Below the pieces are notes generated by a model. The model was not told the origin of the DNA, did no database searches, and worked only from the letters and a program-made list of their open reading frames with translations. Shown piece by piece: positions 7,273 to 40,257 of a stretch of DNA of 64,000 nt; position 1 is the first letter of the stretch; each line of letters opens with the position of its first letter. Origin of the DNA: an uncultured Planctomycetia bacterium. Lineage in GTDB: Bacteria; Planctomycetota; Planctomycetia; Pirellulales; Thermoguttaceae. The translations under genes and the position numbers were made by a program. The stretch spans positions 57,153 through 121,152 of the forward strand of contig CAWAAL010000024.1 of NCBI GenBank assembly GCA_963779975.1. The letters run 5' to 3'.

Positions 7273-8995
7273 GAAACGACCTCGTGCAGACGATTTCGCC
7301 GATCTGCGTCGGCGGGCGGAGGAAAAGGCTCACGCCGACGAGGCCCAGGTTCAGAAACCGCTATCGCCCAAGGAATCCGGACGGCTGCTCCACGAGTTGC
7401 AAGTGCATCAGATCGAGCTGGAGATGCAGAACGAGGAACTGCGCCGGGCACAGGGCGAACTCGAAGCCGCGCGGGCGCGGTATTTCGACCTCTTCGACCT
7501 GGCGCCGGTGGGCTATTTCACCCTCAGCGAACAGGGGCTGATCCTGGAAGCAAACCTCACGGCGGCCAGTTTACTGGGCGTGGAGAGACGCGACTTGGTC
7601 AAGAAGCCGTTGACGCGCTTCATCCTTCCGGAGGACCAGGATATCTACTACCGGCATCGCAAGCAACTCTTTGAAACGGGCACGCCGCAGGTGTACGATC
7701 TGCGAGTGCTGCGTGCAGACACCGACCCCTTCTGGGCGCGTTGGGAGACGACCGAGGCGCAGGATGCTGACGGTGCGCCCGTGTGCCGGGCCGTGATGAG
7801 CGACATTACCGCGCGGAAGCAGGCAGAGGAGAAGTTGGCCGAACTGGACCGCCGCAAAGATCAATTTCTGGCGATGCTCAGCCATGAACTTCGCAACCCT
7901 CTTGCCCCCATCCTCAACTCCGTGCAACTGCTTCAACTCCAGAAAAGCCAGAACTCCGTTCAACAAAAGGCCCTGGCCATCATCGAGCGACAGGTGGGGC
8001 AACTGACGCACTTGGTTGGCGACCTGTTGGAAGTCTCCCGCGCGATCACCGGCAGGATTCAGCTTTGCCAAGAGCAAGTCGCCGTGAACAGCATCGTGGA
8101 ACGTGCCCTGGAGACGGCTCGTCCGCTGATCGACCAGCGCAAACATGAACTCACGGTGTCGCTGCCGCAAGACCCGATTTGGCTGTACGCCGACGCCTCC
8201 CGGCTGGAGCAAGTCGTGACGAACCTCCTCACCAACGCCGCCAAGTACACCAAGGAAGGCGGTCACATCTGGCTCTCCGCCGAGCAGGAGGGCGACAAAG
8301 CGGTGTTGCGCGTGCGGGATACGGGCCTCGGCATTGCTCCCGCGTTCCTGCCTCACGTCTTCGAATTGTTCACGCAAGCCGAGCGGTCATCCGACCGTTC
8401 GCAGGGCGGGTTAGGCATTGGATTGACCCTGGCGAAGCGGCTGGTCGAAATGCACGGAGGAACCATAGGGGTCTCCAGCACTTTGGGGCAAGGTAGCGAG
8501 TTCGTCGTGAGCCTTGTCGTCTGTCCGCCAGGAACGATCTCGGGCCGGGCCGGGTACCAGCGCAGCGGGTGGGCTTGCGGGTGGCAGCCGCCTGCAACGG
8601 AAATAGCCAGGCCGACCGAGTCAGTCTTGCGGGTCCTGGTGGTGGACGATAACCTGGATGCGGCGAATGCCTTGAAAATGCTGGTGGAGGAAGCGGGGCA
8701 TTTGGTGCGGATGGCTTACACCGGCCCGACGGCATTGGCAGCGGCCCTCGATTATCGGCCCGACGTGATGCTGCTGGACATCGGCCTGCCGGAGTTGGAT
8801 GGCCTTGAAGTGGCAAAGCGGATACGTCAGGAGCCCCTACTCCGCGACATCGTGCTAGTAGCCGTGACGGGGTATCGACAGGCGGCAGACCGGCAACGTG
8901 TGCTGGAAGCGGGGTTCGATCACTATTTGGTCAAGCCCGCCGACTTCGAGAAGGTGCGACAAATCTTGGCGGAGGTCGCGGAGAAGGCGACCTGA
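7265..8995 (+). CDS. hybrid sensor histidine kinase (PAS-HisKA-HATPase_c-REC)
   Basis: ATG 7265 overlaps the end of the upstream gene. LAMLSHELRNPLAPI (H-box), GLGIGLTLAKRLVEMHGG, and a C-terminal receiver (VLVVDDN...MLLDIGLPELDG). Confidence 0.85.
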   Translation: MTKKRPRADDFADLRRRAEEKAHADEAQVQKPLSPKESGRLLHELQVHQIELEMQNEELRRAQGELEAARARYFDLFDLAPVGYFTLSEQGLILEANLTAASLLGVERRDLVKKPLTRFILPEDQDIYYRHRKQLFETGTPQVYDLRVLRADTDPFWARWETTEAQDADGAPVCRAVMSDITARKQAEEKLAELDRRKDQFLAMLSHELRNPLAPILNSVQLLQLQKSQNSVQQKALAIIERQVGQLTHLVGDLLEVSRAITGRIQLCQEQVAVNSIVERALETARPLIDQRKHELTVSLPQDPIWLYADASRLEQVVTNLLTNAAKYTKEGGHIWLSAEQEGDKAVLRVRDTGLGIAPAFLPHVFELFTQAERSSDRSQGGLGIGLTLAKRLVEMHGGTIGVSSTLGQGSEFVVSLVVCPPGTISGRAGYQRSGWACGWQPPATEIARPTESVLRVLVVDDNLDAANALKMLVEEAGHLVRMAYTGPTALAAALDYRPDVMLLDIGLPELDGLEVAKRIRQEPLLRDIVLVAVTGYRQAADRQRVLEAGFDHYLVKPADFEKVRQILAEVAEKAT

Positions 8996-9046: not shown

Positions 9047-9088
9047 TCCGACGTGGCCGAAGGCCTTGGAGTGTTCCGTCACGTCGGC
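9047..9088 (+). repeat. terminator-arm-only copy of the repeated module hairpin, no U-tract
   Basis: CCGACGTGGCCGAAGGCCTTGGAGTGTTCCGTCACGTCGG is ~85% identical to the module terminator hairpin but is followed by CGGGATT. It ends 26 nt before the REC-DUF2294 start codon. Confidence 0.55.
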
Positions 9089-9113: not shown

Positions 9114-9974
9114 ATGCCAGGGACAGGGAAAGTTCTTCGGGTTCTCGTGGTCGATGACGACCGAGACGGTGCGGACACGCTTGGCCTGCTCGTTGAAGAA
9201 CTCGGCAACCAGGTACATGTGACCTATGGCGGGACGTCGGCACTCGACGTTGCGACCGTATTTCGGCCCGACCTGATGTTGATCGACCTGGCAATGCCTG
9301 ACATGGATGGATGTCATCTCGTTGGGCAATTTCGCCAGATTCCGGCCTTCGCGAAGACGCGAATCGTGGCGGTCACCGGCCATGCCAACGAGGGACATAG
9401 AACCTTGGCCATGAAGGCCGGGTTCGATAAGGTCCTCTTCAAGCCTGTTGCTCTGAAAGAAATCAAAGCGGTCTTAGCCAGTGTCGTTCAGGGGGGCGCA
9501 CTTGCGGGCCCATCGCCGCAACCGGCCAAGAAGCATGCGAGTTCCCAAGCAGAACGACGTTTGCCGATTAACGAAGCGCGTAGAATCAGGAAGGATCGCA
9601 AATCAGGAATCCTCACTCAAGCAGAAAGCGAAGCAGCCGTCTGCGAGGGGATCATTCGCTTTCAAGAGGACTATTTGGGAGGGGGGGCGGAGCAGATCCG
9701 CGTACACTTCATCAAAGACCTCCTCGTGATCCGCATTCTGGGTGCTTTGACGGTGGCCGAGCGGCAACTGGTCAAGTCCTTTTCGCCGGAGAAAGGGAGG
9801 GATCTCATCAAGCAGACACGGGAACAACTGCTGGAGTTGGCACGCCCGATGTTGGAATCGATGGTCCATGAGGTCGTGGGCGTGAAGGTGTTGAGCATGC
9901 ACCACGACATCAGTACTGTGACCGGGGAAGAAGTGGTCCTCTTCAGCTTGACCGAGGCACCTCGCTTTTCCTAA
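9114..9974 (+). CDS. response regulator: receiver domain fused to DUF2294 (MpsC-like) domain
   Basis: ATG 9114. REC (LVVDDDRDGADTL...MLIDLAMPDMDG...FKP), a linker, then a full DUF2294 pattern (ESEAAVCEGIIRFQEDYLGGG...LSMHHDISTVTGEEVVLFSL). Confidence 0.8.
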   Translation: MPGTGKVLRVLVVDDDRDGADTLGLLVEELGNQVHVTYGGTSALDVATVFRPDLMLIDLAMPDMDGCHLVGQFRQIPAFAKTRIVAVTGHANEGHRTLAMKAGFDKVLFKPVALKEIKAVLASVVQGGALAGPSPQPAKKHASSQAERRLPINEARRIRKDRKSGILTQAESEAAVCEGIIRFQEDYLGGGAEQIRVHFIKDLLVIRILGALTVAERQLVKSFSPEKGRDLIKQTREQLLELARPMLESMVHEVVGVKVLSMHHDISTVTGEEVVLFSLTEAPRFS

Positions 9975-10248: not shown

Positions 10249-10396
10249 TTGCCTTTGCCTCATAGCGGCATACAATGATGGCAGAGTCGCGATACACTCG
10301 ATCGCGACTCTGCAACAAGAATGTCGGATGACTAGATAGAGAGCAACCCGGCCGTACGGGGAGGCTCGTTAGTGAGTAAGCCGACGTGGTCGAATA
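10249..10396 (+). ncRNA. GTCGGATGACTAG-box RNA module, copy 1 (3'-truncated)
   Basis: -35 TTGCCT 10249-10254, 16 nt, -10 TACAAT 10271-10276. 13-bp P1 hairpin 10281-10313; box 10323-10335. The terminator 5' arm breaks at 10396 into an antisense gene relic. Confidence 0.7.
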
Positions 10397-10819
10397 GTCG
10401 TACAGCTCGCGCAGTTGCGTTTCCGGCAGTTCGACGGGCGCCAAATACGGGAAGAGCATCATGTGCTCCCAAGGCATCCAGACCAGTGGAAACGACGGAC
10501 GGATTGGCGCACGAGTGAAGGCGAACGGGTTGACGCCGGACAAGGCAATCGTGGACTCGGCCGTGAGTATGAGTTCCGTGTAGGGTTGGCTGATCTCGAA
10601 TCGACTGGCCGAATTGCCAAAGACATCTTCGAATTCCATGATCGGGACGGCGGGAACAATCTGCAAGCGATAGTTCAAGACGCTCTGATGGACGTCATTG
10701 ATCGGCCGCAGGTGGACGCAATGCTTGCTGTGCTGAACGGGCTGATTGTAACCAAACCGGGTCGTGTGCTTGACAGTCAAGCGACGGCTGCCAATCGTGG
10801 ACGGGACGGGCATGGTCAT
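10397..10819 (-). pseudogene. transglutaminase N-terminal-domain (Bact_transglu_N-like) protein, 3'-truncated by module copy 1
   Basis: RLTVKHTTRFGYNQPVQHSKHCVHLRPIND...FEDVFGNSASRFEI fits the family. Similarity ends at ...LRELYDY, after which the ORF translates the module antisense. Confidence 0.6.
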
Positions 10820-10836: not shown

Positions 10837-11241
10837 CTACTTCTTCTTAACGTCGCGGAGCATCGGCGACTCGGCCAGGGTGAAGAGAACGACCTCCTCG
10901 CCGGTGACGGTGCTAATGTCGTGGTGCATGCTCCGCACCTTGATGCCGGTGATCTCCTGGACCAGCGTTTCCAAGATCGGACGGGCCGTTTCGATCAGAT
11001 GCGTCCGCACTTGCTTGAGCAGGTCGCGCCCCTTCTCGGCAGAGAGCGACTTGACGAGTTGCTGCTCGGCGGCGGTCAAAACGCCTTGCAGGCGGACCAC
11101 GAGCAGATCGCCGAGCAGGTGCGCGTGAATATCCTTGGGTCCCCGGCCCATATAGTCCTGCTCGAAGCGTGTCACTGCTTCGCAGACGGCGGATTCGATC
11201 TCTCCGTGGGTTCTCATGGCAATTTCTCGCTGGGTTCTCAA
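10837..11241 (-). CDS. DUF2294 (MpsC-like) family protein, stand-alone
   Basis: IESAVCEAVTRFEQDYMGRGPKDIHAHLLGDLLVVRLQGVLTAAEQQLVKS...MHHDISTVTGEEVVLFTLAESPMLRDVKKK. Divergent from module copy 2. Confidence 0.8.
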   Translation of the reverse strand: MRTQREIAMRTHGEIESAVCEAVTRFEQDYMGRGPKDIHAHLLGDLLVVRLQGVLTAAEQQLVKSLSAEKGRDLLKQVRTHLIETARPILETLVQEITGIKVRSMHHDISTVTGEEVVLFTLAESPMLRDVKKK

Positions 11242-11344: not shown

Positions 11345-11530
11345 TAGCCAGTCGGCAAGGGATCGCTAAAATATAGATGTAACCGCTCCAAAGAGCTTGA
11401 ATGCTCGGATTACGATGAATGTTTGTCGGATGACTAGATGAAATACAACCCGGCCTTGCCGGGGGGTTCGTTGAAGAGTAAGCCGACGTGGCCGAATACC
11501 TGCGGGTGTTCCGCCACGTCGGCTTTTTTG
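11345..11530 (+). ncRNA. GTCGGATGACTAG-box RNA module, copy 2
   Basis: Divergent promoter region (TAGCCA, 16 nt, TAAAAT 11367-11372). Box 11425-11437; full terminator; T6 11524-11529. 75 nt to ATG 11605. Confidence 0.7.
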
Positions 11531-11604
11531 TTTCCGTGGTGCAAGACGGTCGGAATCCATTCACGGAAGGCTACTTCTCGGCCCAAGCATTGGAGGATAG
11601 GATC

Positions 11605-11883
11605 ATGTTGTTCTTGGCGCAATCACTACTCACGATGGCGGGCTTTGAGTACGACGAAATCGACGAAACCTGGGTAGCGCGAATGCCGTTGCGTCCTCTT
11701 GTGGCGGTCGAATGCGACGAGGATCGAGCTTACGTCCGGGAGGCGCTGAGGGAGGTCCAAGCGAGTCTTGACGCTATCGGCTGCGCCTACGACAACTACT
11801 TCGTGGTCAACGGCCGCTTCGTCTCCGTCCCAGGGCCTAGCGCCCGTGCGGCTACGGGTCTGGACGAACAGGATGACGGTTAA
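11605..11883 (+). CDS. hypothetical protein
   Basis: ATG 11605 follows RBS GGAGGA (MLFLAQSLLTMAGFEYDEIDETWVARMPL...). No family recognised. Confidence 0.4.
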   Translation: MLFLAQSLLTMAGFEYDEIDETWVARMPLRPLVAVECDEDRAYVREALREVQASLDAIGCAYDNYFVVNGRFVSVPGPSARAATGLDEQDDG

Positions 11884-12071
11884 AGTCGTCCCCATCCTGT
11901 GCAGGGCAGGATCGGATCGAGCCCGCTCAGCCAATGTCTCGTCAATCTGATGGATCATCCGGCAGGATCGGTCCATCAGGTCCCTCGCCTCCTGTTCATT
12001 GATCTTCAGGTTCCACTTCACGTCGTTGAGCCGCAGGTTACCACACAACTGAAGACCGTAATCGTGCGCGC

Positions 12072-12248
12072 CTACCCGGTCACGTTCTTCACGGCTTTCT
12101 TTACCGCGCAGGCAGCCTTTTGGACGGCCTGCTTCGCCTTCCCGACCACTTGGTCGGTCTTTCCTTCGTCACGAAGCTTGTCGTTGCCGGTCAGCGCCCC
12201 GGCGGCTTCCTTGATTCGACCCTTCACCACGTCTGTCTTGCCACCCAT
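12072..12248 (-). CDS. CsbD-like general stress protein (58 aa, below ORF-track cutoff)
   Basis: Hand translation: MGGKTDVVKGRIKEAAGALTGNDKLRDEGKTDQVVGKAKQAVQKAACAVKKAVKNVTG. ATG at 12248-12246, TAG at 12074-12072. Confidence 0.75.
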   Translation of the reverse strand: MGGKTDVVKGRIKEAAGALTGNDKLRDEGKTDQVVGKAKQAVQKAACAVKKAVKNVTG

Positions 12249-12585: not shown

Positions 12586-12672
12586 CTACTTCTTCTTTAC
12601 GTCGCGGAGAATGAGCGACTCGGCGCGGGTGAAGAGAACGACCTCCTCGCCGGTGACGGTGCTGATGTCGTT
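12586..12672 (-). pseudogene. DUF2294 gene relic (last 28 codons + stop)
   Basis: The reverse strand reads NDISTVTGEEVVLFTRAESLILRDVKKK-stop. It lies 22 nt left of the copy 3 promoter. Confidence 0.7.
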
Positions 12673-12694
12673 TGAAAGAAAGCCAAAAGCTCTA

Positions 12695-12880
12695 TTGCCT
12701 TCGCCGCGTAGCGGCGTATGATAGTTGTATTGGGAGAATCGCGGCGCACTTGATCGCGACCTTTCAACGCAATTGTCGGATGACTAGATAGAGAGCAACC
12801 TGGATGTGCCAGGGGGCTCGTTGAAGAGTAAGCCGACGTGGTCGAATGCCTTCGGGTGTTCCGCCACGTCGGCTTTTTTC
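12695..12880 (+). ncRNA. GTCGGATGACTAG-box RNA module, copy 3
   Basis: TTGCCT 12695-12700, 16 nt, TATGAT 12717-12722. Box 12775-12787; P2 variant CCTGG/CCAGG; T6 12874-12879. 74 nt to ATG 12954. Confidence 0.75.
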
Positions 12881-12953: not shown

Positions 12954-13028
12954 ATGTACATCGGTGGCGGATTGGTTACGCTTGTGATCATCGTCTTGGT
13001 TGTCATGTTCCTCGTTCGCGGCTCTTGA
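12954..13028 (+). CDS. possible 24-aa hydrophobic peptide
   Basis: RBS AAGGGAGAG, then ATG 12954: MYIGGGLVTLVIIVLVVMFLVRGS. The tail resembles the DUF3309 C-terminus (LLLVRGF at 3329). Confidence 0.35.
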   Translation: MYIGGGLVTLVIIVLVVMFLVRGS

Positions 13029-13075: not shown

Positions 13076-14764
13076 ATGACCGTACGTCACATTTGCCCAT
13101 GGTGCAGAGTCGCCGCACTGGCAACCCTGGGCGCAATAGTTGGCTTGCACAAGGCTACCGCCGTACCGCCGGGCCCGACGGATGCCGCGGATGGGATACA
13201 AGTGCTCACGCGCGGGCCGGTGCATGAGGCCTTCGCGGAAACGGTGACCTTCGATCCGCAACCGGGCATCGTGGCGCCGAAAGCGCCGCCGGCCGCCATC
13301 GAAGAACTTCCGCCGGACCAGAAACCGGAGGGGGCCAACATCGCCTGGATCCCCGGCTACTGGGCCTGGGACGACGAACGAAGCGACTTCCTTTGGGTCA
13401 GCGGCATCTGGCGCGACCTTCCGCCGAGCCGCCAATGGGTGCCCGGTTATTGGGACCAGTCCGGGCAAGGCTACCAATGGACTTCCGGGTACTGGGCGGA
13501 TGCCCAGGCGAGTAACGTGCAATATTTGCCCGAACCGCCTGTGACCGCCGAAGCCGGTCCCAACATTCCGTCGCCTTCGCCGGACGACACTTGGCTGCCG
13601 GGAAGTTGGCTGTGGCAGCAAAACCGCTATGCTTGGCGTCCCGGTCTCTGGGCCACCGCACATCCGGATTGGGAGTGGGTTCCCGCCCATTACCTATGGG
13701 CTCATCGCGGCTATGTTTTTGTCGACGGCTACTGGGATTACTCCATCGGCCGCCGCGGCGTACTGTTTGCGCCAGTGTATTTCAGTGCGGGCATGTATAC
13801 GCAGCCCCGTTTCTCCTATTCGCCCGCGACGGTGATCGATCTGGATGTTTTCACCAACTGTCTGTTCTTGAGGCCGCAATATCAACACTACTATTTCGGC
13901 GACTACTACGCCGACAATTATCAAGCAGCGGGGTTCTACCCGTCGTATTCGTACAACTCCGGCCGCCATGGCTACGATCCGATTTTCACCCACGAGCGCT
14001 GGCAGCATCGCCAGGACGGACAGTGGGAGCGTCGCATTGCGGCCGACTTCCAGAACCGCCGCGATCACGCGGATGCCCGACCGCCGCGGACGTTGGCGGC
14101 GCAAACAGCATTCAGGGCCGGCGAGGCGACGTCCGGAAAGAGGAGTCCCGTGCTGGCCGTGCCGTTCTCCCAATTCACGAAGAGTCAGAATAGTCCGCTG
14201 CGATTCCAGCCGGTCGATTCGTTGGAGCGACAAAAGCTGGTTCAGCACGTGCAAGCGGTGCAACGATTCCGCGAGCAGCGGCAGAAACTGGAGAACCAAG
14301 CAGCGGCGCCCTCAGCCGCCTCAGCGGCGAGACAATTCGCGCCGGCCAACGGGAGACTTCCCACCTCTCCGATCGCGACGAGGTCAAACACGGAACTCGG
14401 CAAGGATCACGTTCCACCCCAGATGCATGTAGCTCCCAAGCCGGATCTCACGGTCGAGGCCAAGCCGAGAGCGACTCCATCGCTGGAGAAACCGCAGCAA
14501 CGCACCGTGAACCGGCTGCCGCTCGATACGCCGAAACCTGAACCCCGGGCCGAACGGCCGGCACCGAAAGCGGAACCCCGGGTCGAACGGCCGGCACCGA
14601 AAGCGGAACCCCCGGTCGAACGGCCGGCACCGAAACCTGAACCCCAGGTCGAACGCCCAGCGCCGAAACCTGAACCCCAGGTCGAACGCCCAGCGCCGAA
14701 ACCGCCGGCAGAGCGACCGGCAGCGGGACCGAACCGAAATGGACAAAAGGAAAAGGGTAAATAG
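13076..14764 (+). CDS. secreted YXWGXW-repeat protein with Pro/Lys/Glu-rich repeat tail
   Basis: ATG 13076 with a signal-like N-terminus. Repeated GYWxW/WxPGxW aromatics (WIPGYWAWDD, WVPGYWDQSG, WTSGYWAD, WLPGSWLWQ). The tail is (PKxEPxVERPA)n. Confidence 0.6.
   Translation: MTVRHICPWCRVAALATLGAIVGLHKATAVPPGPTDAADGIQVLTRGPVHEAFAETVTFDPQPGIVAPKAPPAAIEELPPDQKPEGANIAWIPGYWAWDDERSDFLWVSGIWRDLPPSRQWVPGYWDQSGQGYQWTSGYWADAQASNVQYLPEPPVTAEAGPNIPSPSPDDTWLPGSWLWQQNRYAWRPGLWATAHPDWEWVPAHYLWAHRGYVFVDGYWDYSIGRRGVLFAPVYFSAGMYTQPRFSYSPATVIDLDVFTNCLFLRPQYQHYYFGDYYADNYQAAGFYPSYSYNSGRHGYDPIFTHERWQHRQDGQWERRIAADFQNRRDHADARPPRTLAAQTAFRAGEATSGKRSPVLAVPFSQFTKSQNSPLRFQPVDSLERQKLVQHVQAVQRFREQRQKLENQAAAPSAASAARQFAPANGRLPTSPIATRSNTELGKDHVPPQMHVAPKPDLTVEAKPRATPSLEKPQQRTVNRLPLDTPKPEPRAERPAPKAEPRVERPAPKAEPPVERPAPKPEPQVERPAPKPEPQVERPAPKPPAERPAAGPNRNGQKEKGK
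14531..14722 (+). repeat. 33-bp tandem repeat x ~5.8 (codes PKAEPRVERPA units)
   Basis: Units at 14531, 14564, 14597, 14630 and 14663, plus a partial unit at 14696, read directly from the sequence. Confidence 0.85.
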
Positions 14765-15041
14765 GTCGTCGTGGTTGAGCCTTGACGGCAAGAACACGAC
14801 CGGCTGTGTGCTCGGCGAGCAGTTCGGCAGGTCGAAGGAAGTGAAACGACTTGCCTTTGCCAGAAAGGCACGAGCAAAAACAAGACCGTGACGACGACCA
14901 CTCAGACCAAGGACGGTAAGACAGCAGGCGGGACGACCACGAACGACACGAAGACAAAAACCACTGCTCCTCCCGCTGGCGGCAAGGCGACTGAAAAGAC
15001 GACCGAAACGACCACCGAGACGACCAAGTAGGTTTTGCGAA

Positions 15042-15094
15042 AGCGTTTTCTGAATGCTAGGTATAACCCCTACGCATTCAGAAACGCTATTTTA
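15042..15094 (+). terminator. long hairpin, terminator-like
   Basis: AGCGTTTTCTGAATGCTAGG / CCTACGCATTCAGAAACGCT (about 19 bp, one bulge), followed by ATTTTAT. Confidence 0.5.
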
Positions 15095-16311
15095 TCCTTG
15101 CTTCGCCCGAAGAAATACGAGCTGGAGATTCACGGCGCGAAGGTGAAACCAGGCTTCGAGGTCGATCCCGATGTCCCGGCCTGTCATTCGGAGGTGCGGG
15201 AACGTGTCCATAGGGTCCGGTCAGATCGCCTGTCGCCTTGCGGTTTGAGTCCTTATGACACGCCTTGGCGGCGGAACGACACCGGCCTTGCTGTGCCCAG
15301 TCCCACCGGGCAACCGTCGCTGAACGCCGCACTTTCGCCTCAATCTTCAGCGCCGGAGTCCAATTTTCCCGAACTACAGGCCATTCCCGATCTCGGCCCC
15401 CCGTCGTTCCCCGAAACGAATGGGCGGGAAGGCACGAGCCCGGCCGAGCCAGCCCTTGACCTGACTCGCAGCGTCGGACGGCCGGTCGCGCTTCCGCAGC
15501 AAACGTACACCCGCTCGTCGGAGTTATCCGACCGCTTGACGCAGATCGCACGCGGCAAGGGCATGCTCCCCGGTCAGGGCATCAACGTCTGCTCATAAGC
15601 AACGGCATCGCCCTCATGCACGGCACCGTCCGCACGCCCGGCGACTGCGTCCTGCTGGCGAACGTCCTGGCTCTCGAACCGGAGGTGCGGCAGATTGACA
15701 ACCGCTTGGTCGCCTTCGGTCCTCGGTAGGCTTTTTGGGCGATCGCCGGTGGCCGTTCGGGGTTCCGTGGCATTGACGCTTTGCGGGCGCTATCGTCGCT
15801 TGTACGCACTCCAGGGGGTAACTGGACGGGATTTCGCTGGTGTCGGCCGGCAAGGCCGGGTTCAGGCGATTACCGGGTCGATCGAGATTGTTGGCTGCGG
15901 CACGAATTGACCCGCCGACCTGAAACAGGGCGCGTAGCGTCGGTCCTGCACCACGGCATCCGGTCGAACCACCACCAGACGGCGCCCATGGCCACGAATT
16001 TGGCGGACCACGAGCACGGATTCCGCATTAAGAAGTGGACACCGAATGAGAGTGATGCCCAGAGTGCTGGGCCGGATCAGAAGGACAATGGGCCATGGCA
16101 GAAAGTGAAACCTTCCGGGCGCTGCACGACAACAGTACGACACCAAAGACAAACAGTGCGGCGCTCGGAGGTTCCTCCCGCGCCGGAAAAGCCGAGCCGA
16201 CACCTGTGCCAATGGCGCCGCACGCATGCGCGCTACAGTACCTCATTTCCATCATCAAGAACTCGCAACGCAGGAGCCCGTCACAATAGAACGACTGAAG
16301 GATGGTGCCTC

Positions 16312-17763
16312 ATGGTAACAATGGACAAGTCCGAACCGGGGTCGATTCGCACCTATCTGATGCAAATGGGCGACATCCCTCTGCTCAGCCGGAGCGAGGA
16401 GTTGGCGACAGCTCGTCAAATCGACAAGACTCGCGGTCGGCTGCGGCGTGGCATGTTGTCCGCCCACTTTATCCTTCACGCGGCGATCGCCGCGGCGGAA
16501 GAAGTCCTGAGCGGCAAGCTGCGGTGGGACCAGGTGATCGAGTTATCGAACGATGATCCCAGGAAGGGGCAGATAACTCAGCTCTTGGAGACGAATTGCC
16601 GGACGCTCGGTCAGCTCCTGCGCTTGAACCGGAATGATTTCCGCATCGCCGTCGGTCATCGGAAGCATTCGCCGGACGATCGTCGGGCCGCACGGCGGCG
16701 GCTAGTCCATCGCCGTCGAAGGGCGGCGTCGTTGATCGAGGAAGTCGCGGTGCGAATGCCCTGCATGCAGTCGGCGCTGACCACGCTCAGGCAGATGTCC
16801 GAACGGATGACCGCCGTCGCCGTAGCGCGGGCGAAAGTGCAATCGGTTGCTGGCGAAGAACACCAACTTGAAGAGCTGCGCAAGGAAATGCGCTGCCTGA
16901 TGCGGGTCACGCAGGAAACCCCAGCCACGTTGCGCCGACACTTGACGCGGATCGCGGCGATGAGCAAAGAGCATGCAGCGGCCCGCCGCGACCTGGCGGC
17001 GGGCAACCTCCGTCTGGTCGTCTCGATCGCCAAGCGATACCGCAATCGCGGGCTGAGCTTGTTGGACCTGATCCAGGAAGGTAATACCGGCCTGATGCGG
17101 GCCGTCGATAAGTTCGAGTCCGCCCGCGGCTTCCGCTTCTCGACCTACGCTACCTGGTGGATCCGCCAGGCCATGAGCCGGGCGATCGCCGACCAGAGCC
17201 GGACCATCCGCGTGCCGGTCCACATGATCGAAAAGATGGGCAAGGTCCGCGACATCAATCGCGATCTGGTTCACAACGAGGGCCGCGAACCGACCCTGGA
17301 GGAAGTGGCCCAACTCAGCGGGCTGTCGATCGCCGACACGCAGCGGGCCTTGAAGATGAGCCGGCAACCGCTTTCCTTGGACCAACCCGTGGGCCATCAG
17401 GAAGAGAACTTCCTTGGCGACCTGCTCTTCGATCATCGCGAAGAAGATCCGCTGGCCGGCATGAACCAGGCCATGCTTCGTTCGAGCATCACCGACGTTT
17501 TGCAGACGCTCGACTATCGCGAGCGGGAGATCCTGCGGCTGCGCTACGGGCTGGCCGACGGCTACACCTCGACACTGCAGGAGATCGGCCGGATCTTCTC
17601 CGTCACCCGGGAGCGGGTCCGCCAGATCGAGTCCGAGGCGATCCGCAAGCTCCAGCGTCCGGCTCTGTCTCGCAAACTCGCAGGCTTTCTGGATGAGCAG
17701 ATCCCGCTGCTGAGCAACATCAACTTCGGTCTCAGCGGGATCGCCATGGCCGGGAATTTGTGA
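16312..17763 (+). CDS. RpoD-family sigma-70 factor (regions 1.2, 2, 3, 4)
   Basis: ATG 16312. [85 protein letters not shown]...[20 protein letters not shown]. Confidence 0.85.
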
Positions 17764-17922: not shown

Positions 17923-18105
17923 TTGCCTTTGCCCTTTGGCGGCGTAAAATGTGAGTGTTGGAAGAGTCGCATGGCAGATCGCGCTGCTCCAACGTAATTG
18001 TCGGATGACTAGAAAGAGGGCAACCCGGCCCTGCCGGGGGGCTCGTTAGCGAGTAAGCCGACGTGGTCGAATACCTCCGGGTGTTCCGCCACGTCGGCTT
18101 TTTTC
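17923..18105 (+). ncRNA. GTCGGATGACTAG-box RNA module, copy 4
   Basis: TTGCCT 17923-17928, 16 nt, TAAAAT 17945-17950. Box 18000-18012; T6 18099-18104. 44 nt to ATG 18149. Confidence 0.75.
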
Positions 18106-18148: not shown

Positions 18149-20779
18149 ATGTTCTGCCCGAGTTTCGCTCCCCTGTTCGGAAATTCCTGGTCTCGCAAGC
18201 GCACCCGCCGGACGCCGGTTGCGAAACGCCTCACTCGGCCGCTGTCGCTGCTTCGCCTGGAATACCTGGAAGATCGCCGAATGCTCACGAGTATTCTGGG
18301 CTCGGCGGGGAGTTTCGCGGTTCTGGGCGCCTCGACGGTGACCAATACCGGCCCGACCACCATCACCGGAAATCTGGGTGTGTACGCGGGTAGTTCGATC
18401 ACGGGCCTGGGGAGCATCACGATCACGGGAACGGTACACCAAACGGATGCGGTCGCGCAGTTGGCGCAGGCCGATAACACCACCGCGTACAATGGTCTGG
18501 CGAACATGCCGTTCAACAGCGACTTGACGGGCGAGGATCTGGGTGGACTCACGCTCGTGTCGGGCGTCTATCATTTTGACTCGGCGGCCCAGTTGACGGG
18601 AACACTCACGCTCAACGCCCAGGGCAACAACAATGCGTTCTGGGTTTTCCAGATAGGGAGCGGGCTGACGACCGCCAGCAACTCGGCGGTTCAGGTGATC
18701 AATTTCGGTTCGAATGGCGGTTCCGATGACGGCGTGTTCTGGCAGGTCGGCAGTTCCGCCACGCTCGGCACCGCCACTTCGTTCGAAGGGAATATTCTCG
18801 CGCTGGCGAGCATCACCCTCAACACCACCGCAACCATTCTGAACGGCAGGGCCTTGGCGCAAACCGGCGCGGTGACGATGGATACCAACACCATCAGTAA
18901 CGTCTGCCCGCTGGGCGGCCCCGGTAACGGCGGCCCCGGCTACAGCGGCGGCCTTGAGTTCAATCCCATTGGCAAAGTCGTGCCCGTTACCCCGGGCGTC
19001 ATCCCGCCAACCGGGCCAGGCGTCATCGGCGGCATGAAGTTCGACGACCTGAACGGGAGTGGGGTGCAGAATGCCGCCGATCCGGGCCTGGCGGGGTGGA
19101 CGGTTTACGTAGACTACAACGACAACGGCGTGTTCGACAGCGCCACGGAGCCGTCGGCAGTGACGGGCCCGGGGGGAACGTATACGATCACGGGCGTGAC
19201 GCCGGGCACCTGGAAGGTGCGGGAAGTCGGCCAGACAGGCTGGACGACCTCGCTTCCTGCGACAAGCGACGTCTACGGCGCCTACCAGCTAGTCACCGTG
19301 CCGGCGAACGGGTCGTTGGTAGGGGTCGAATTCGGCAATTATGAGCAGACCTCGATCCACGGCTACAAGTTCAACGACCTGAACGGCAACGGCGTGGACA
19401 ACAGCGAGCCGCGGCTTGCCGGCTGGACGATCGTGCTGGTCGGCACGACCGGCGCGGGCACTGCGGTCTCGACCACCACGACGACGGGAGCCGACGGCCA
19501 GTATTCGTTCACCGGCCTGGCGCCGGGAACCTACACCGTGAGCGAGCAGAACCAGACCGGCTGGACGCAATTGGCCGGCGGGGCGACGTTCACGCTCACC
19601 AGCGGCGAAGAGGCGGTGGCCTATACCGGTGAGGCGGGCACGCTGTTGCCCGGTCAGGCCGAGGTGCTCACTGCCGGGCTGGCCTTCGGCAACCATCATC
19701 GTAATGTGATCGTCATCGCGCAGGCCAAGAGTCCGAACACGCCGCAATTGGTCCGAGTGATCGACGAGGGGAGCGGGGCCGTGTTGTCGCAGTTCGCACC
19801 GTACGGCAAAACCTTCCAGGGCGGCATTCGGATCGCCACCGGCGATCTCATCGGCAATGGCGCCGACGAGATCGTTACGGCGCCCGGATGGAGCACGGTT
19901 GCGGTCGTCAAGGTGTACAGCCAGACGGGCGTTCTGCTGACGTCCTTCGATCCGTACGGCCCGACGTTCACGGGCGGCGTCCAGGTGGCGATCGCCGACG
20001 TCGATGGCGACGGGTTGAACGACATCATCACGGTTCCCAGCTACGGGCCTGCCGAGATGAAGGTGTTCCGGAACCTGGGCGTCGTGGGTGGAGTGCCCAC
20101 GTTCAATGCATCGCTGCCCTACAGGGAATTCCTCGCCTTTCCGTCGTCGTTCATCGGCGGCGCGGTGGTTACCGCGGCCGACATGGGAAGCACCCCGCTG
20201 GCAAACGGACCGTTCGTCCCCGGGCTGCTGGACGGGAAGGCGGAAATCGTCGTCGGGAGCGGCGCCGGCATGAAGACCACGGTGAAGGTGTTCGACGTTA
20301 GCCGCATGACCACACTCATGCCCAACAGTGTGGCCGCGGCCGTTGCGAGTTTCACTCCTTTCAGCACAGCCACTTTCACTTATAAAGGGGGGGTGTCGCT
20401 CAGCGTGGCGAGGATCAGCGCCAGTCTCACCCCGGACATCATCGTGGGGGCCGGCGTCGCCGGCAATTCCCTGGTGGACGTTTGGGCCTGGAACACTCCT
20501 TCCCCCACGTTGTCCAGTTTATCGGCCAATGGCATGGGCTTTGCCGCGTTCACCGGTCCGAGTCAAACCGCGCCGGTTGAGGTAGCGGCAATGGACACTG
20601 CCGGTAACGGCATCGCGGATACGATTATTGCCGTGCAGGGACCTGGTGGGACCACGGGCCAGATCCGCGCGTTCAAGATTACCAGCGTCTCGCCGCTCCA
20701 GGTTTCGCCACCCACGACAGTCCCCGGCAGCTATCTGCAACCCTATTTCATCGATCAGGTTTTCGCGGCATACGTGTGA
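18149..20779 (+). CDS. large secreted surface protein: DUF3494 ice-binding-like domain + 2 SdrD-B/Cna-B-like domains + FG-GAP/VCBS-like region
   Basis: ATG 18149. N-terminal LRLEYLEDRRMLTS leader, then ILGSAGSFAVLGASTVTNTGPTTITGNLGV..., GxKFxDLNGxGV repeats, and DVDGDGLNDIIT-type repeats. Confidence 0.7.
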   Translation: MFCPSFAPLFGNSWSRKRTRRTPVAKRLTRPLSLLRLEYLEDRRMLTSILGSAGSFAVLGASTVTNTGPTTITGNLGVYAGSSITGLGSITITGTVHQTDAVAQLAQADNTTAYNGLANMPFNSDLTGEDLGGLTLVSGVYHFDSAAQLTGTLTLNAQGNNNAFWVFQIGSGLTTASNSAVQVINFGSNGGSDDGVFWQVGSSATLGTATSFEGNILALASITLNTTATILNGRALAQTGAVTMDTNTISNVCPLGGPGNGGPGYSGGLEFNPIGKVVPVTPGVIPPTGPGVIGGMKFDDLNGSGVQNAADPGLAGWTVYVDYNDNGVFDSATEPSAVTGPGGTYTITGVTPGTWKVREVGQTGWTTSLPATSDVYGAYQLVTVPANGSLVGVEFGNYEQTSIHGYKFNDLNGNGVDNSEPRLAGWTIVLVGTTGAGTAVSTTTTTGADGQYSFTGLAPGTYTVSEQNQTGWTQLAGGATFTLTSGEEAVAYTGEAGTLLPGQAEVLTAGLAFGNHHRNVIVIAQAKSPNTPQLVRVIDEGSGAVLSQFAPYGKTFQGGIRIATGDLIGNGADEIVTAPGWSTVAVVKVYSQTGVLLTSFDPYGPTFTGGVQVAIADVDGDGLNDIITVPSYGPAEMKVFRNLGVVGGVPTFNASLPYREFLAFPSSFIGGAVVTAADMGSTPLANGPFVPGLLDGKAEIVVGSGAGMKTTVKVFDVSRMTTLMPNSVAAAVASFTPFSTATFTYKGGVSLSVARISASLTPDIIVGAGVAGNSLVDVWAWNTPSPTLSSLSANGMGFAAFTGPSQTAPVEVAAMDTAGNGIADTIIAVQGPGGTTGQIRAFKITSVSPLQVSPPTTVPGSYLQPYFIDQVFAAYV

Positions 20780-22455: not shown

Positions 22456-22543
22456 CTACTACTTCTTTACGTCGCGGAGAATGGGCGACTCGGCGCGGGT
22501 GAAGAAGAACGACCTCCTCGCCGGTGACGGTGCTGATGTCATT
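22456..22543 (-). pseudogene. DUF2294 gene relic (frameshifted 3' end)
   Basis: The reverse strand reads NDISTVTGEEVVL, then is out of frame through one extra T relative to relic 12586-12672. It lies 22 nt left of the copy 5 promoter. Confidence 0.65.
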
Positions 22544-22565
22544 TGAAAGAAGGCCAATAGCCCTA

Positions 22566-22748
22566 TTGCCTTTACCCTTTGGCGGCGTACAATGTGACTG
22601 TTGGAAGAGTCGCATCGCAGATCGTGCTGCTCCAACGAAGTTGTCGGATGACTAGAAAGAGGGCAACCCGGCCCTGCCGGGGGGCTCGTTGACGAGTAAG
22701 CCGACGTGGTCGAATACCTCCGGGTGTTCCGCCACGTCGGCTTTTTTC
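22566..22748 (+). ncRNA. GTCGGATGACTAG-box RNA module, copy 5
   Basis: TTGCCT 22566-22571, 16 nt, TACAAT 22588-22593. Box 22643-22655; T6 22742-22747. 30 nt to ATG 22778. Confidence 0.75.
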
Positions 22749-22777
22749 ATTTTCTGCCAGGTTCGGAGTACCCTCCC

Positions 22778-23791
22778 ATGTCGATCTTACCACACTTTCA
22801 CCAACCCCTGCAGACCGCGACAAAACAGCAGATTTTCCAGCAACATCGCCATGGCGACTCGGCGGAGTCGCTGGCCCGGCGTTTTTGTCGGTCCTGCACC
22901 CGCATTTACGGCATCATCAAGGAGATCCGGGCCGCACGGATCATGGAACTGCCGCTGGACTCCATGGGCAACGAGCAGTTTGCCCGCCTGTGCTCGGAGA
23001 AGAAGGAACGCGAGATATTACAGCCACCGCCGGAAGGCGATCTGGCGGCGAAGAAGTCGCGCGTGCCCGCCGGCATGCCCGCGTATCTGGCCAACCTGTA
23101 CGACGTGCCCCTGCTGACGCACGAGGAGGAGGTCCATCTCTTTCGGAAGATGAACTATCTCAAGTTCAAGGCGAGCGGGCTCCGCGACGCCCTCGACGTG
23201 AACCGGCCCAAGAGTTGCCTGATGGACCAGATCGAGGATCTGTACGACGAATCGGTCGCAGTCCAGAATCAGATCATCCGCGCCAACCTGAGGTTGGTGG
23301 TCGGGATTGCCAAGCGGTACGTCGGTCCGGCGGAAGACTTCTTCGAACTGGTCAGCGACGGGAACATGTCGTTGATCCGCGCCGTGCAGAAGTTCGATGT
23401 TTCGCGGGGCAACAGGTTCAGTACGTACGCAACTTGGGCGATCATGAAGAATTTCGCCCGCACGATCTCCGACGTGCTCCGTCAGCGGGGCCGTTTTTGC
23501 ACGAACCACGCGGAAACGTTCGGCGGCGCCGAGGATGACCGCACGGACCAGTACGAGCAGGCGTCGGCCCAAATCCAGCGGGAATCGCAAGTCGAGGGGA
23601 TCCTCGAGCGACTCGACGAGCGGGAGCGGCAGATTGTCACGAGCCGTTTCGGCCTGGCGCGCGGCCAGGAACCGCTGACCTTGAAGCAGGTCGGGGCTGC
23701 GATCGGCGTAACCAAAGAGCGGGTCCGTCAGATCCAGTGCCGGGCGATGAGCAAATTGAGAACGGCTGCCGAGGAGGACGGAATCGAGTGA
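22778..23791 (+). CDS. alternative sigma-70 family factor (regions 2-4, long N-terminal extension)
   Basis: ATG 22778. [72 protein letters not shown]...TLKQVGAAIGVTKERVRQIQ. Confidence 0.8.
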   Translation: MSILPHFHQPLQTATKQQIFQQHRHGDSAESLARRFCRSCTRIYGIIKEIRAARIMELPLDSMGNEQFARLCSEKKEREILQPPPEGDLAAKKSRVPAGMPAYLANLYDVPLLTHEEEVHLFRKMNYLKFKASGLRDALDVNRPKSCLMDQIEDLYDESVAVQNQIIRANLRLVVGIAKRYVGPAEDFFELVSDGNMSLIRAVQKFDVSRGNRFSTYATWAIMKNFARTISDVLRQRGRFCTNHAETFGGAEDDRTDQYEQASAQIQRESQVEGILERLDERERQIVTSRFGLARGQEPLTLKQVGAAIGVTKERVRQIQCRAMSKLRTAAEEDGIE

Positions 23792-30247: not shown

Positions 30248-30349
30248 CTATTTCTTCTTCGCGTCGCGGAGCATCGGCGACTCGGCCAGGGTGAAAAGAA
30301 CGACCTCCTCGCCAGTGAGGGTGCTTATGTCATGGCGCATGCTCAACGC
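30248..30349 (-). pseudogene. DUF2294 gene relic (last 33 codons + stop)
   Basis: The reverse strand reads LSMRHDISTLTGEEVVLFTLAESPMLRDAKKK-stop. It lies 47 nt left of the copy 6 promoter. Confidence 0.7.
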
Positions 30350-30396: not shown

Positions 30397-30581
30397 TTGC
30401 CTTTTTTGCGTGGCTGGTTACAATGACCGGTGGGAAGAGTCGCGGCGGACTAGACTGTGGCTTTTCACTGGAATTGTCGGATGACTAGATAGAGGGCAAC
30501 CCGGCCGTGCCGGGGGGCTCGGTAGCGAGTAAGCCGACGTGGTCGAATACCTGCGGGTATTCCGTCACGTCGGCTTTTTTC
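30397..30581 (+). ncRNA. GTCGGATGACTAG-box RNA module, copy 6
   Basis: TTGCCT 30397-30402, 16 nt, TACAAT 30419-30424. Box 30476-30488; T6 30575-30580. 56 nt to ATG 30637. Confidence 0.75.
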
Positions 30582-30636: not shown

Positions 30637-31170
30637 ATGTCCGAGAAGAAGTCCGTTGTCGCTATTTTTGAAACCCACGATCAAGCCGAGGACGCTGTTC
30701 GCGAACTCCAGAAGGACGGCTTCGACATGAAGAAGCTGTCGATCGTCGGCAAGGCTTACCTCACGGACGAGCACGTCGTCGGCTACTACAACACGGGCGA
30801 CCGCATGATGTATTGGGGCAAGCTGGGGGCCTTCTGGGGCGGCTTCTGGGGACTGCTCTTCGGCTCCGCGTTCTTCTGGGTGCCGGGCATCGGTCCGCTC
30901 GTCGTGGCGGGACCGTTGGTGACCTGGATCGTCGCCGGGCTCGAAGGCGCCGTCATGACAGGATCGCTCACCGCTCTCGGCGCAGGACTCTACAGCATCG
31001 GGATTCCCAAGAACAGCATCGTAGAATACGAGACCGAGGTGAAGAGCGGCAAGCTTCTCCTGGTTGCCCACGGAACGGCCGACGAAGTGGAACACGCCCG
31101 GGACCTCCTGCATCAGACGGGAGTGGAGACAGCAACGGTTCATGCGGAGCGGGTCGCAGTCGGCGTCTAA
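30637..31170 (+). CDS. YflT/general-stress-protein-17M-like domain membrane protein
   Basis: VVAIFETHDQAEDAVRELQKDGFDMKKLSIVGK, then glycine-zipper TM segments, then LLLVAHGTADEVEHARDLL. Confidence 0.5.
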   Translation: MSEKKSVVAIFETHDQAEDAVRELQKDGFDMKKLSIVGKAYLTDEHVVGYYNTGDRMMYWGKLGAFWGGFWGLLFGSAFFWVPGIGPLVVAGPLVTWIVAGLEGAVMTGSLTALGAGLYSIGIPKNSIVEYETEVKSGKLLLVAHGTADEVEHARDLLHQTGVETATVHAERVAVGV

Positions 31171-31181: not shown

Positions 31182-31391
31182 ATGGAAGACCACCACGAGC
31201 ATGGCCACCAACACGAGCATGACCACCACCACGGGCCGCCGCGCAGGAAACTGCATCGCGATTGGCGCCTGTGGCTGGTGGTCGGCCTGATGCTGGCCGC
31301 GATGCTCATGTACGTTTTGTCAGACAACGAGCGATTCGGTCTGGGACGAGGTACGGGAAAGATCTCCCCGCCCGTCCCGGCGATGCCGTGA
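31182..31391 (+). CDS. His-rich small membrane-anchored protein
   Basis: ATG 31182: MEDHHEHGHQHEHDHHHGPPRRKLHRDWRLWLVVGLMLAAMLMYVL... No family recognised. Confidence 0.4.
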   Translation: MEDHHEHGHQHEHDHHHGPPRRKLHRDWRLWLVVGLMLAAMLMYVLSDNERFGLGRGTGKISPPVPAMP

Positions 31392-31421: not shown

Positions 31422-32579
31422 ATGGACAAGATTAGGCCGGAAACACATGGTCCCGAACATCATTCGTACAGGGCGAAGCCGTTGACGGTGATCCTCGTCG
31501 CGCTGGCCGGCGGCGCAGTGCTGTATTTTGGCGTCATGGCATGGTATTTCACGGGGGTCGATCCGGGCGGCGGGCCGCCGGGCCTCGATGAGGCCGCGAC
31601 GGAGTCGTCTTCCGCCGGCGAGGGCCAGGGCAACTTGGCCCTTCCTTCTTTTTCAGCAAGACTATTTTCGGAGGTTCAAGTCATGTGGATGCACTATACT
31701 GCAATTGGCCTGGGGGTCGCCCTGGTATTGGTCGCCTTGTACCTGGCGAGTTGTATCCGTGTTCTCAACGAATACCAGCGCGGCGTCATCTTCCGCCTGG
31801 GCCGGGCCATGCCCGCGCCCAAGGGACCGGGGCTGATCATGGTCTTCTCGCCGGTCGACAGCATGGTGCGAGTCGACTTGCGGACCATAACAAGAGTCAT
31901 CGAGCCCCAGGACATCATCACCCGGGACAACGTCTCGGTCCGCGTCAATGCCGTGCTCTATTTCCGGGTCGTGGACCCCATGCGGTCCGTGTTGGAAGTG
32001 GCCGACTTCTTGTTCGCCACTTCCCAGGTGGCGTTGACGACGTTGCGCAGCACGCTGGGGCAGGCGGAACTCGACGACCTCCTGACGGAGCGGGACAAAG
32101 TGAACCGCCGCTTGCAAGAGATCATCGATAAGCACACCGAGCCGTGGGGAGTGAAAGTCTCCGTCGTGGAGGTCAAGGACGTGGACCTGCCCGAGCCGAT
32201 GAAGCGGTCCATGGCCCATCAGGCGGAGGCCGAACGCGACCGGCGTGCGAAGGTCATCAACGCGGAAGGGGAGTTCCAGGCCGCGGACAAACTCCGCCAG
32301 GCTGCCCAGATCATGACGCCCTATCCCATGGCGATGCAGATGCGCTACCTCCAGGCCCTGGCCGAGGTAGCCTCCGAAAAGAACTCCACCATCATCTTTC
32401 CGCTGCCGTTGGAACTGTTGGCGCCGTTCCTGAAAAGCGGCCGGGACGGCGCGAGCAGCGCCGTGCCAACCAGCACGCGACTCGAGAATGCAACCCTTGG
32501 TGTAAATGATTCTTTAGAACCGGCGCAAGTTATCGGATCGGGAGCAATGCCAGCGACGATCGGCGGGAACGGCCGGTAG
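31422..32579 (+). CDS. SPFH/band-7 (stomatin-like) protein
   Basis: LNEYQRGVIFRLGR..., DLRTITRVIEPQDIITRDNVSVRVNAVLYFRV, AEAERDRRAKVINAEGEFQAA. Confidence 0.8.
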   Translation: MDKIRPETHGPEHHSYRAKPLTVILVALAGGAVLYFGVMAWYFTGVDPGGGPPGLDEAATESSSAGEGQGNLALPSFSARLFSEVQVMWMHYTAIGLGVALVLVALYLASCIRVLNEYQRGVIFRLGRAMPAPKGPGLIMVFSPVDSMVRVDLRTITRVIEPQDIITRDNVSVRVNAVLYFRVVDPMRSVLEVADFLFATSQVALTTLRSTLGQAELDDLLTERDKVNRRLQEIIDKHTEPWGVKVSVVEVKDVDLPEPMKRSMAHQAEAERDRRAKVINAEGEFQAADKLRQAAQIMTPYPMAMQMRYLQALAEVASEKNSTIIFPLPLELLAPFLKSGRDGASSAVPTSTRLENATLGVNDSLEPAQVIGSGAMPATIGGNGR

Positions 32580-40200: not shown

Positions 40201-40257
40201 GAACACCACGGCCCATGCCTCAACAGCTTGATACTGTGGGAAAAAGCAATGGGCCTA

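Follow-up and report, generated by a model that had tools for sequence, protein, structure and literature searches.

A repeated promoter-leader-terminator cassette, a candidate RNA attenuator, precedes general-stress-type genes in Planctomycetota

Many dispersed genes share one upstream element in the SigB regulon of B. subtilis, the RpoS regulon of E. coli and the EcfG regulon of alphaproteobacteria, and a sigma factor gene is among their members. Proteins of the CsbD, YflT, Hsp20, Dps and BON families belong to SigB, RpoS or EcfG regulons. In protein-dependent attenuation (the ANTAR proteins EutV, AmiR and NasT, LicT/SacY with the RAT sequence, PyrR and TRAP), antiterminator and terminator exclude each other in a leader that is repeated before several operons, and the regulator gene adjoins its target. 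Here we describe a locus that resembles both. The window, by which we mean the whole stretch of 64,000 nt that was analysed (positions 57,153 to 121,152 of the forward strand of contig CAWAAL010000024.1, assembly GCA_963779975.1, from an uncultured Planctomycetia bacterium of the Thermoguttaceae), carries a repeated cassette of promoter, leader RNA and terminator, and an alternative sigma factor gene lies behind one of the copies. In our estimate the balance tips slightly towards the cassette being an RNA attenuator with its own promoter that controls a general-stress-type regulon, the sigma factor being one output.

Ten complete copies and one truncated copy of the cassette, each complete copy about 190 nt long, were found in the window by repeat finding, which returned a 111-nt core eleven times, and with a covariance model made from 130 leaders, which scored the complete copies at 101.7 to 124.2 bits and the truncated one at 58 bits. 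The repeated modules described in an earlier note on this DNA are thus confirmed. All copies lie on the plus strand and have the same order: first a sigma-70-type promoter, then a structured leader, then a strong intrinsic terminator, with a plus-strand gene 29 to 109 nt beyond. In copy 5 (22566-22747, 124.2 bits), the -35 element TTGCCT at 22566 is followed by a 16-nt spacer, the -10 element TACAAT (22588-22593), a variable hairpin designated P0 and the core (22638-22747). The leader ends in a long hairpin and a T6 run that finishes at 22747, and the ATG of the sigma factor gene (22778-23791, plus strand) follows 30 nt later. The earlier note had placed a sigma-70 family gene at this distance from the U-tract; the coordinates and the Pfam matches to regions 2 and 4 agree with it.

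The leader has a conserved secondary structure. Among the 130 leaders, covariation is strong in the P2 hairpin (P2a/P2b) and in the terminator: both sides were changed in 21 of 27 pairs, and 95.9% of cells were paired, compared with 28-53% in slid controls, and none of 500 shuffles reached as high a value. Covariation of this strength indicates that the structure is real. The 5' hairpin P0 is variable and is missing in copies in which the -10 element lies about 15 nt from the core. Folding of the full leader gave P0, a small GUC-GGAU-GAC hairpin, P2 and the terminator (-73 kcal/mol, z = -5.1), and in the full transcript the terminator was the more stable structure.

When the 3' strand of the terminator was omitted, as in a nascent leader, P1, P1b and P2 formed a single long irregular hairpin. 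This was seen in minimum-energy and centroid predictions for all eight leaders that were folded (four window sequences of three module copies, and four leaders of other taxa). In these predictions (Y)GUCGGAYGACU, the invariant 5' box, lies opposite AGUAAGCCGAC(G), with GUCGG paired to CCGAC and ACU to AGU; the pairing closes the irregular hairpin and takes up the 5-6 bases with which the terminator stem begins. Because CCGAC is the base of the terminator stem beside the U-tract, the predicted antiterminator and terminator folds would exclude each other, and the leader is likely, as modelled, to be a terminator/antiterminator switch.

In this respect the cassette is like the protein-dependent attenuation leaders. 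It differs from them in that no ANTAR, CAT/PRD, PyrR or TRAP domain is found here, and the leader, one long hairpin with loops of 3-5 nt, has neither the dual hexaloop ANTAR motif nor a RAT sequence. The scale is also unusual: the leader is sequence-invariant across the phylum and is present in at least 10 copies per locus.

Three other explanations of the conserved sequence were discarded. TGACTAGATAG is not a three-frame stop or a mini-ORF (AUG ACU AGA UAG), as the TAG varies (TAA, TGG, TAT, TAC) and the AUG is ACG in about one third of the copies. The terminator region gives rise to recurrent open reading frames (ORFs) such as MVEYLRVFRHVGFF, but its substitutions track base-pairing rather than codon positions. 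A mobile element, MITE or integron cassette was rejected because the region lacks a transposase or integrase and the polarity is always that of the cargo (the genes downstream of a module); the same leader ahead of orthologous genes in distant taxa contradicts it as well.

The cassette is not confined to the window. When the invariant boxes TCGGAYGACTAG and AGTAAGCCGAC were looked for together in a single genome of each species, at least 119 loci were found to carry it, from Pirellulales, Planctomycetaceae, Gemmataceae, Isosphaeraceae, Thermoguttaceae, Phycisphaerae and Tepidisphaeraceae, and the covariance model added dozens of copies in these loci that do not fit the exact box pattern. Among the matches listed, the first supported ORF past the U-tract was co-oriented with the module in 100 of 119 loci. 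This polarity, the spacing of 29-109 nt in the window and the short interval between U-tract and start codon are the grounds for a cis-regulatory reading. Many loci outside the window have a further conserved box, GTTCTTGGCGryG…GACGkyCGyAA, 15-20 nt past the U-tract, which is possibly a second small hairpin in the 5' untranslated region (UTR) of the cargo.

The genes downstream of modules were assigned in the window by Pfam, NCBIfam, tblastn or translation. Copy 3 (12695-12879) is followed by a 24-aa hydrophobic peptide (12954-13028) and a WXXGXW protein (13076-14764), in the tail of which 33-nt in-frame tandem repeats encode PKPEPRVERPA units (14498-14737); copy 4 (17923-18104) by an Ice_binding/DUF3494 surface protein (18149-20779); and copy 6 (30397-30580) by YflT (30637-31170), a His-rich 69-aa ORF (31182-31391) and SPFH (31422-32579). 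Copy 7 (38337-38521) precedes a single-domain response regulator (38606-39052), copy 8 (40258-40443) a secreted DUF4440/SnoaL (NTF2-like) protein (40545-41531), copy 9 (46671-46861) a 71-aa membrane protein (46900-47115) and DUF1328 (47201-47377), and copy 10 (47385-47570) an Hsp20-like protein (47600-48010). The last of these matched an Hsp20 model of NCBIfam (1.2e-9) and was below the cut-off in Pfam (E 0.004). Copy 11 (48138-48338), with the promoter TTGTGC-16-TATAAT, precedes GT4, an unassigned protein, a fatty-acid desaturase and GH130 (48448-53467). All of these modules and the genes directly behind them are on the plus strand.

Copies 1 and 2 are less regular. Copy 1 (10249-10397, plus strand; model match 10318-10434, 58.3 bits) is cut inside the terminator stem, the terminator being interrupted by a minus-strand transglutaminase-like gene. 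The core of copy 2 (11420-11529, plus strand) has no canonical -35 element. All 10 complete copies have a plus-strand ORF within about 110 nt, which is ambiguous for copy 2 only: here a plus-strand ORF (11536-11883) competes with an overlapping minus-strand ORF (11626-12048), and neither has a family. Apart from this ambiguity at copy 2, the downstream gene list of the earlier note stands, with weak Pfam support for Hsp20. The minus-strand ORF has a weak resemblance to PP2C-type phosphatases (Stp1 model, E 0.0015, 48 residues) and may be a gene fragment.

Two further repeats were noticed. A copy of the module terminator hairpin (CCGACGTGG…CCGTCACGTCGG) without leader core or U-tract is present at 9048-9088, between the kinase and receiver-DUF2294 genes described below, and two elements that are 85% identical and contain an inverted repeat of 18 bp (AGAACGTTCGGAAGAAAT … ATTTCTTCCGAACGTTCT) stand right behind the terminators of copies 8 and 11 (40455-40530 and 48350-48421).

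The cargo in other genomes is of the same kind. Among the first ORFs behind 104 modules, Pfam identified MpsC/DUF2294 in 30, DUF3309 in four, Transgly_assoc in three, two each of CsbD, HSP20, Ice_binding, YflT, DUF4440, GT4, Sigma-70 regions 2 and 4, and CsrA, and one HSP70. Also spotted by eye were a response regulator, a STAS-like protein, BON and Dps/ferritin. A second set of 149 ORFs, mainly second and third genes, contained CsrA (nine), MpsC (six), glycosyltransferases and DUF1328 (five each), CsbD and HSP20 (four each), BON, PAS and DUF2934 (three each), and ferritin, SPFH, DksA/TraR, receiver domains, sigma and YflT (two each).

Families of known general stress regulons therefore recur behind modules: CsbD, YflT, Hsp20, DUF1328, SPFH, DUF3309, BON, ferritin and HSP70 were all found, in the window or in other genomes. 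As stress-type cargo is present in the window and in more than 100 independent loci, the stress flavour is a property of the element throughout the phylum. The proposal of the earlier note that the module-linked genes form a coherent stress-type set is supported, in gene content, at both levels, and the cargo would on this basis constitute a general-stress-type regulon. The locus shares with the SigB, RpoS and EcfG regulons the families CsbD, YflT/GSP17M, Hsp20, DUF1328, YqjE/DUF883-type, Dps/ferritin, BON and SPFH. It differs from them in that the shared element is a housekeeping-looking promoter joined to a conserved structured RNA and a terminator. In a microarray study of R. baltica, a shared stress response was reported and classical heat-shock sigma genes were not observed to respond (PMC2754498).

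Some of the cargo is related to cold or heat (ice-binding protein, desaturase, Hsp20, DnaK), and this would suit a riboswitch or RNA thermometer, in which a small molecule, an ion or temperature acts on the P1-P2 internal loops without any protein and DUF2294 and CsrA are cargo only. The architecture is aptamer-like: as in terminator-platform riboswitches, an irregular conserved hairpin has a closing helix (P1) that overlaps the terminator and highly conserved internal loops, three of them near-invariant, and sequence conservation across a phylum is typical for ligand pockets. Yet no known riboswitch family was matched; Rfam 15 had no family at the gathering threshold across the window, and around the module only chance-level matches (E > 1) were obtained. 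The base of the terminator is itself sequence-invariant, unlike that of terminator-platform riboswitches, and the cargo is functionally heterogeneous, with no single metabolite or transporter. We consider a protein-free switch unlikely, since the module is tightly and conservedly linked both to csrA and, whatever the cargo, to a divergent DUF2294 gene, which fits protein partners better.

The most conserved neighbour of the module phylum-wide is mpsC-A, which encodes a 126-aa DUF2294/MpsC protein. In the window it lies on the minus strand (10837-11217), divergent from module copy 2 and about 180 nt away. Among the best 120 of more than 8000 database relatives, identity to mpsC-A was 80-91%. 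Orthologues that are 70-85% identical were found divergent from the module and about 200 nt upstream of its core, 41 of them full-length and 10 fragmentary; behind these modules the cargo was the DUF2294 paralogue mpsC-B in 17 and other genes in 16, including the sigma factor in L032. Remnants of the C-terminus of mpsC-A (about 27 codons, …DISTVTGEEVVLFTLAESPMLRDVKKK*) are present on the minus strand at 12594-12674, 22464-22544, 30250-30340 and 40141-40202, where they abut the promoters of copies 3, 5, 6 and 8. These remnants suggest that modules were copied together with their divergent mpsC-A, and that the surplus gene copies then decayed.

A third arrangement of DUF2294 is found in the window. 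A gene for a response regulator with a receiver and a DUF2294 (MpsC) domain (9114-9974, plus strand) directly follows a PAS-HisKA-HATPase-receiver hybrid kinase gene (7184-8995), and the same pair is present at L054, where the receiver-DUF2294 orthologue is 84% identical. This fusion implies that DUF2294 serves as a two-component output domain, as ANTAR does in antitermination regulators, and it parallels the receiver-ANTAR proteins. DUF2294 is not known to bind RNA. An AlphaFold model of mpsC-A (pLDDT 83) had a weak resemblance to V4R/Bet3/H-NOX-type folds. A CheR-type methyltransferase (5211-6134) is encoded in the same neighbourhood.

The second conserved partner is csrA. The commonest locus consists of a divergent DUF2294 gene, the module, mpsC-B (139 aa) and csrA, the last three making up the founder operon, with csrA starting about 525 nt past the module core in about 20 loci (L001, L089, L046, L073 and some 16 others); 22 of 28 CsrA matches lay within module operons. 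In the leader, G9, G10 and A11 are invariant across the 130 sequences, and the minimum-energy fold of the full leader places this GGA in the loop of a 3-bp hairpin (GUC-GGAU-GAC), where it looks like a putative CsrA-type site. GGA was also noticed near cargo start codons, by eye and without statistics. The resemblance to Csr/Rsm systems (CsrA with FliW or CsrB/RsmZ; CsrA-dependent termination at E. coli pgaA) includes the invariant UG-flanked GGA (CGGAUGA) in a small hairpin loop; the CsrA/Rsm site of hcnA is ACGGAUGA. As in fliW-csrA, the founder operon has csrA directly after a small partner gene, and autoregulation through its own leader is plausible. Unlike Csr/Rsm systems, each leader has a single conserved GGA, an intrinsic terminator would be the target in place of translation or Rho, and DUF2294, the partner, is not FliW-like in fold. 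DUF2294 proteins and the CsrA paralogue are, on this genomic evidence, the best candidates for the effector.

The same GGA hairpin and csrA linkage could mean that the modules are genes for an abundant, multicopy, trans-acting small RNA (sRNA) of about 110-150 nt, possibly a CsrA sponge, with downstream expression as incidental read-through. With a promoter of its own and a terminator that looks efficient, each module would be expected to yield mainly a discrete short RNA, and multicopy families are known among Rsm and Csr sRNAs. We regard this as quite improbable as the primary role. Sponges carry several GGA sites and this RNA conserves only one; the co-oriented gene tens of nucleotides downstream in 100 of 119 loci, like the plus-strand ORF near each complete window copy, gives a fixed orientation and spacing unlike that of a stand-alone sRNA gene, and the antiterminator design implies controlled read-through. 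The sRNA and attenuator roles are not mutually exclusive.

With up to two mismatches, the promoter-like motif TTGCCT-N16-TACAAT occurred nine times in the window, always on the plus strand, compared with 1.8 expected from shuffles (maximum 5), which upholds the conserved promoter of the earlier note. A good arrangement of cTTGCnTT and TAyAAT was present in 109 of 137 module upstream regions, with 16-nt spacing in 86. In loci totalling 1.3 Mb the exact motif TTGCNT-16/17-TANAAT had 61 occurrences, of which 56 lay directly before a module; shuffles gave 1-3. The promoter is part of the cassette unit, and its sequence argues for a real shared promoter of near-canonical sigma-70 type.

The product of the gene behind copy 5 is a 337-aa protein with an N-terminal helix-turn-helix (HTH)-like segment, region 1.2 (residues 97-126, from alignment to the RpoD-like protein described below), region 2 (PF04542, E 4.9e-16, residues 167-239) and region 4 (PF04545, E 1e-15, residues 276-328). 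It scored 102.9 bits with the superfamily model TIGR02937 (cut-off 42.9). No match to region 3 (PF04539) was found, and regions 2.4 and 4.1 are only about 45 residues apart. The protein was below the cut-offs of all named equivalog models: RpoS, 144 bits (cut-off 379); RpoD models, 130-143 (354-582); and RpoH models, 90-98 (241-323). It was far under the cut-off of the SigB model, and the extracytoplasmic function (ECF) models Sigma70_ECF and Sigma70_r4_2 did not match it. In addition to falling under the curated thresholds, it is unlike the sigma factors of the general stress regulons in that no RsbV/W or PhyR/NepR partner-switching module lies next to its gene. A sequence look-up found no record of the exact sequence.

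A metagenome scan returned 291 relatives of this sigma factor. The canonical form of the family has about 555 aa and three N-terminal HTH-like segments, and the protein in the window is an N-terminally truncated form of this planctomycete family, its 5' UTR being recognisable as a relic of lost coding sequence. The module is directly upstream of close orthologues (at least 65% identity), both long and short forms, at L032, L121, L123-L129, L131, L132 and L138. At L043 and L087 the sigma gene comes last in an operon whose other genes are of module type (DUF1328, a small membrane protein and a WXXGXW protein). For the 66 orthologues with an identity of 65% or below, up to 3 kb on either side was examined and contained no module.

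A second sigma factor gene lies between module copies 3 and 4 (15781-17763, plus strand; start codon uncertain). Its product has regions 1.2, 2, 3 and 4, scored 406 bits with an RpoD model and matched PF04539 (E 3.9e-15); from its sequence it is probably the housekeeping sigma factor. This gene was in none of the loci examined from other genomes. The region 4.2 recognition helix is nearly the same in both proteins (VTKERVRQI in the 22778 sigma factor), while region 2.4 reads WAIMKNFAR in the 22778 sigma factor and WWIRQAMSR in the RpoD-like protein. A TTG-type -35 element could, to judge from these helices, be read by either. Just upstream of the RpoD-like gene, an ORF (15035-15598, plus strand) with no Pfam match contains a degenerate CsrA-like stretch (…LEIHGAKVKPGFEVDPDVPACHSEV…).

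Does the 22778 sigma factor itself recognise the module promoters? If it did, it would drive the regulon and its own gene by positive autoregulation or feed-forward, and the leader would be secondary. The position of the gene 30 nt behind a module in the window and the module upstream of about 11 close orthologues are consistent with this, as are the near-confinement of the strict motif to modules (56 of 61) and the region 4.2 helix, which is compatible with a TTG-type -35 element. At L193 an exact TTGCGT-16-TACAAT (272-299) lies 51 nt before the start codon of a long-form orthologue of 50% identity that has no leader RNA or module, the sole such case noticed. Among 17 distant long-form loci in which the gene start was parsed, two of them with a module, no module-type promoter was found close to a module-less gene, and two more of the 17 had only a loose match about 170 nt upstream; as start finding failed for most loci, this comparison is weak. 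The motif is moreover a near-consensus sigma-70 promoter, and an RpoD-like sigma factor is encoded in the window, whereas the 22778 protein lacks region 3 and has altered region 2.4 residues. Modules are phylum-wide, yet the 66 more distant sigma orthologues had no module in the DNA examined. A dedicated sigma factor would also leave the invariant structured RNA and the terminator behind every promoter unexplained. Finally, because the module is genomically tied to DUF2294 and CsrA genes and not to the sigma gene, the sigma factor is more likely an output than a driver. We therefore doubt that the 22778 sigma factor drives the regulon, and autoregulation is less likely. On balance its distribution suggests clade-specific cargo that would form a second tier of the response.

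Taken with the attenuator that we favour, these results suggest the following sequence of events. A strong sigma-70-type promoter, more likely read by the RpoD-like sigma factor, would start a leader of about 110-150 nt, of which the 3' 110 nt are conserved across Planctomycetota. In the nascent leader the 5' box would hide the start of the terminator stem, giving the antiterminator state, and most likely the cargo would be expressed only if RNA polymerase passed the terminator. The balance between antiterminator and terminator would be set by a ligand or a trans-acting factor, the best candidates being the DUF2294/MpsC proteins (the stand-alone divergent protein, the cargo paralogue and the response-regulator output) and the CsrA paralogue. 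If CsrA or another factor bound the 5' box, CCGAC would be released and termination favoured; stabilisation of P1, or removal of CsrA, possibly through DUF2294 proteins, would allow read-through. The 337-aa sigma factor, as an output of the regulon, may then add a second transcriptional tier.

Several points weigh against this reading. What is said here of transcription start sites, of termination and read-through and of induction by stress is deduced from sequence. The P1/P1b pairs are almost invariant, and covariation is unable to confirm a helix whose bases hardly change. In the set selected by pattern, covariation of P1 is uninformative since the boxes were fixed by the search pattern, and among copies found by the model it is equivocal. 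In divergent copies a few changes are compensatory (U16-A66 becomes C-G in L051 and G-C in L090; G6-C76 becomes A-U in L026), and the frequent change of A75 to G keeps a U-G pair; they also have uncompensated mismatches, such as U7 to C in three. There is one conserved GGA per 111-nt core, and CsrA usually needs two GGA sites. DUF2294 and CsrA could be cargo only and not effectors. That the promoter motif is found almost nowhere but at modules would also be expected with a dedicated sigma factor, and the module-less motif at L193 fits such a factor as well.

Other features of the window touch the cassette less directly. CsbD (12072-12248, minus strand), DUF3309 (3168-3329) and a YqjE-type protein (PF07332, 433-963) are neighbours; Pfam agreed with their earlier assignment. 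An ECF sigma factor gene (43268-43918, plus strand; PF07638, E 4.5e-62) adjoins the gene for a Gly/Arg-rich TPR protein (41549-43228, plus strand), downstream of the copy 8 cargo. Within a minus-strand gene (45008-46570), 72-nt in-frame tandem repeats span 45828-46466. Four tandem repeats of 21 nt (TTTCCCCGTCAGGAAGCAAT) at 61316-61398 lie between two minus-strand genes and overlap one 3' end by about 12 nt according to a crude gene call; these could be operator sites.

The kinds of element found here (an attenuation leader, an alternative sigma factor, a stress regulon) are known, and their combination is new. We searched the literature on planctomycete RNA motifs, small RNAs, start sites, stress regulons and CsrA, on DUF2294 and on R. 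baltica stress transcriptomics and found no description of the leader, no planctomycete general stress mechanism and no link between DUF2294 and CsrA; 'MpsC' brought up only other meanings of these letters. The earlier note likewise mentions neither the RpoD-like sigma factor nor the csrA link, and neither the receiver-DUF2294 regulator nor the other DUF2294 genes. What is new is a phylum-wide, sequence-invariant cassette that marks a general-stress-type regulon, is paired with DUF2294 and CsrA genes and has apparently spread by duplication. We propose tentatively, and with rather less than an even chance of being right in every part, that the general stress response of Planctomycetota runs through this phylum-wide RNA attenuator and not through a sigma-specific promoter, that read-through is set by DUF2294/MpsC regulators and a dedicated CsrA paralogue, and that the cassette spreads with its divergent DUF2294 gene by duplication and captures cargo, including a sigma factor.

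If this is true, the RNA cassette would define the planctomycete stress regulon by sequence alone and would be a new class of cis-regulatory RNA outside Rfam. It would also give DUF2294/MpsC, a family without a known role, a first testable function. The cassette could supply strong, portable promoter and terminator parts for a phylum that is poor in genetic tools. For the biology of these bacteria, it would mean that a unit of regulator plus leader can spread within a genome and place a sigma factor under its control.

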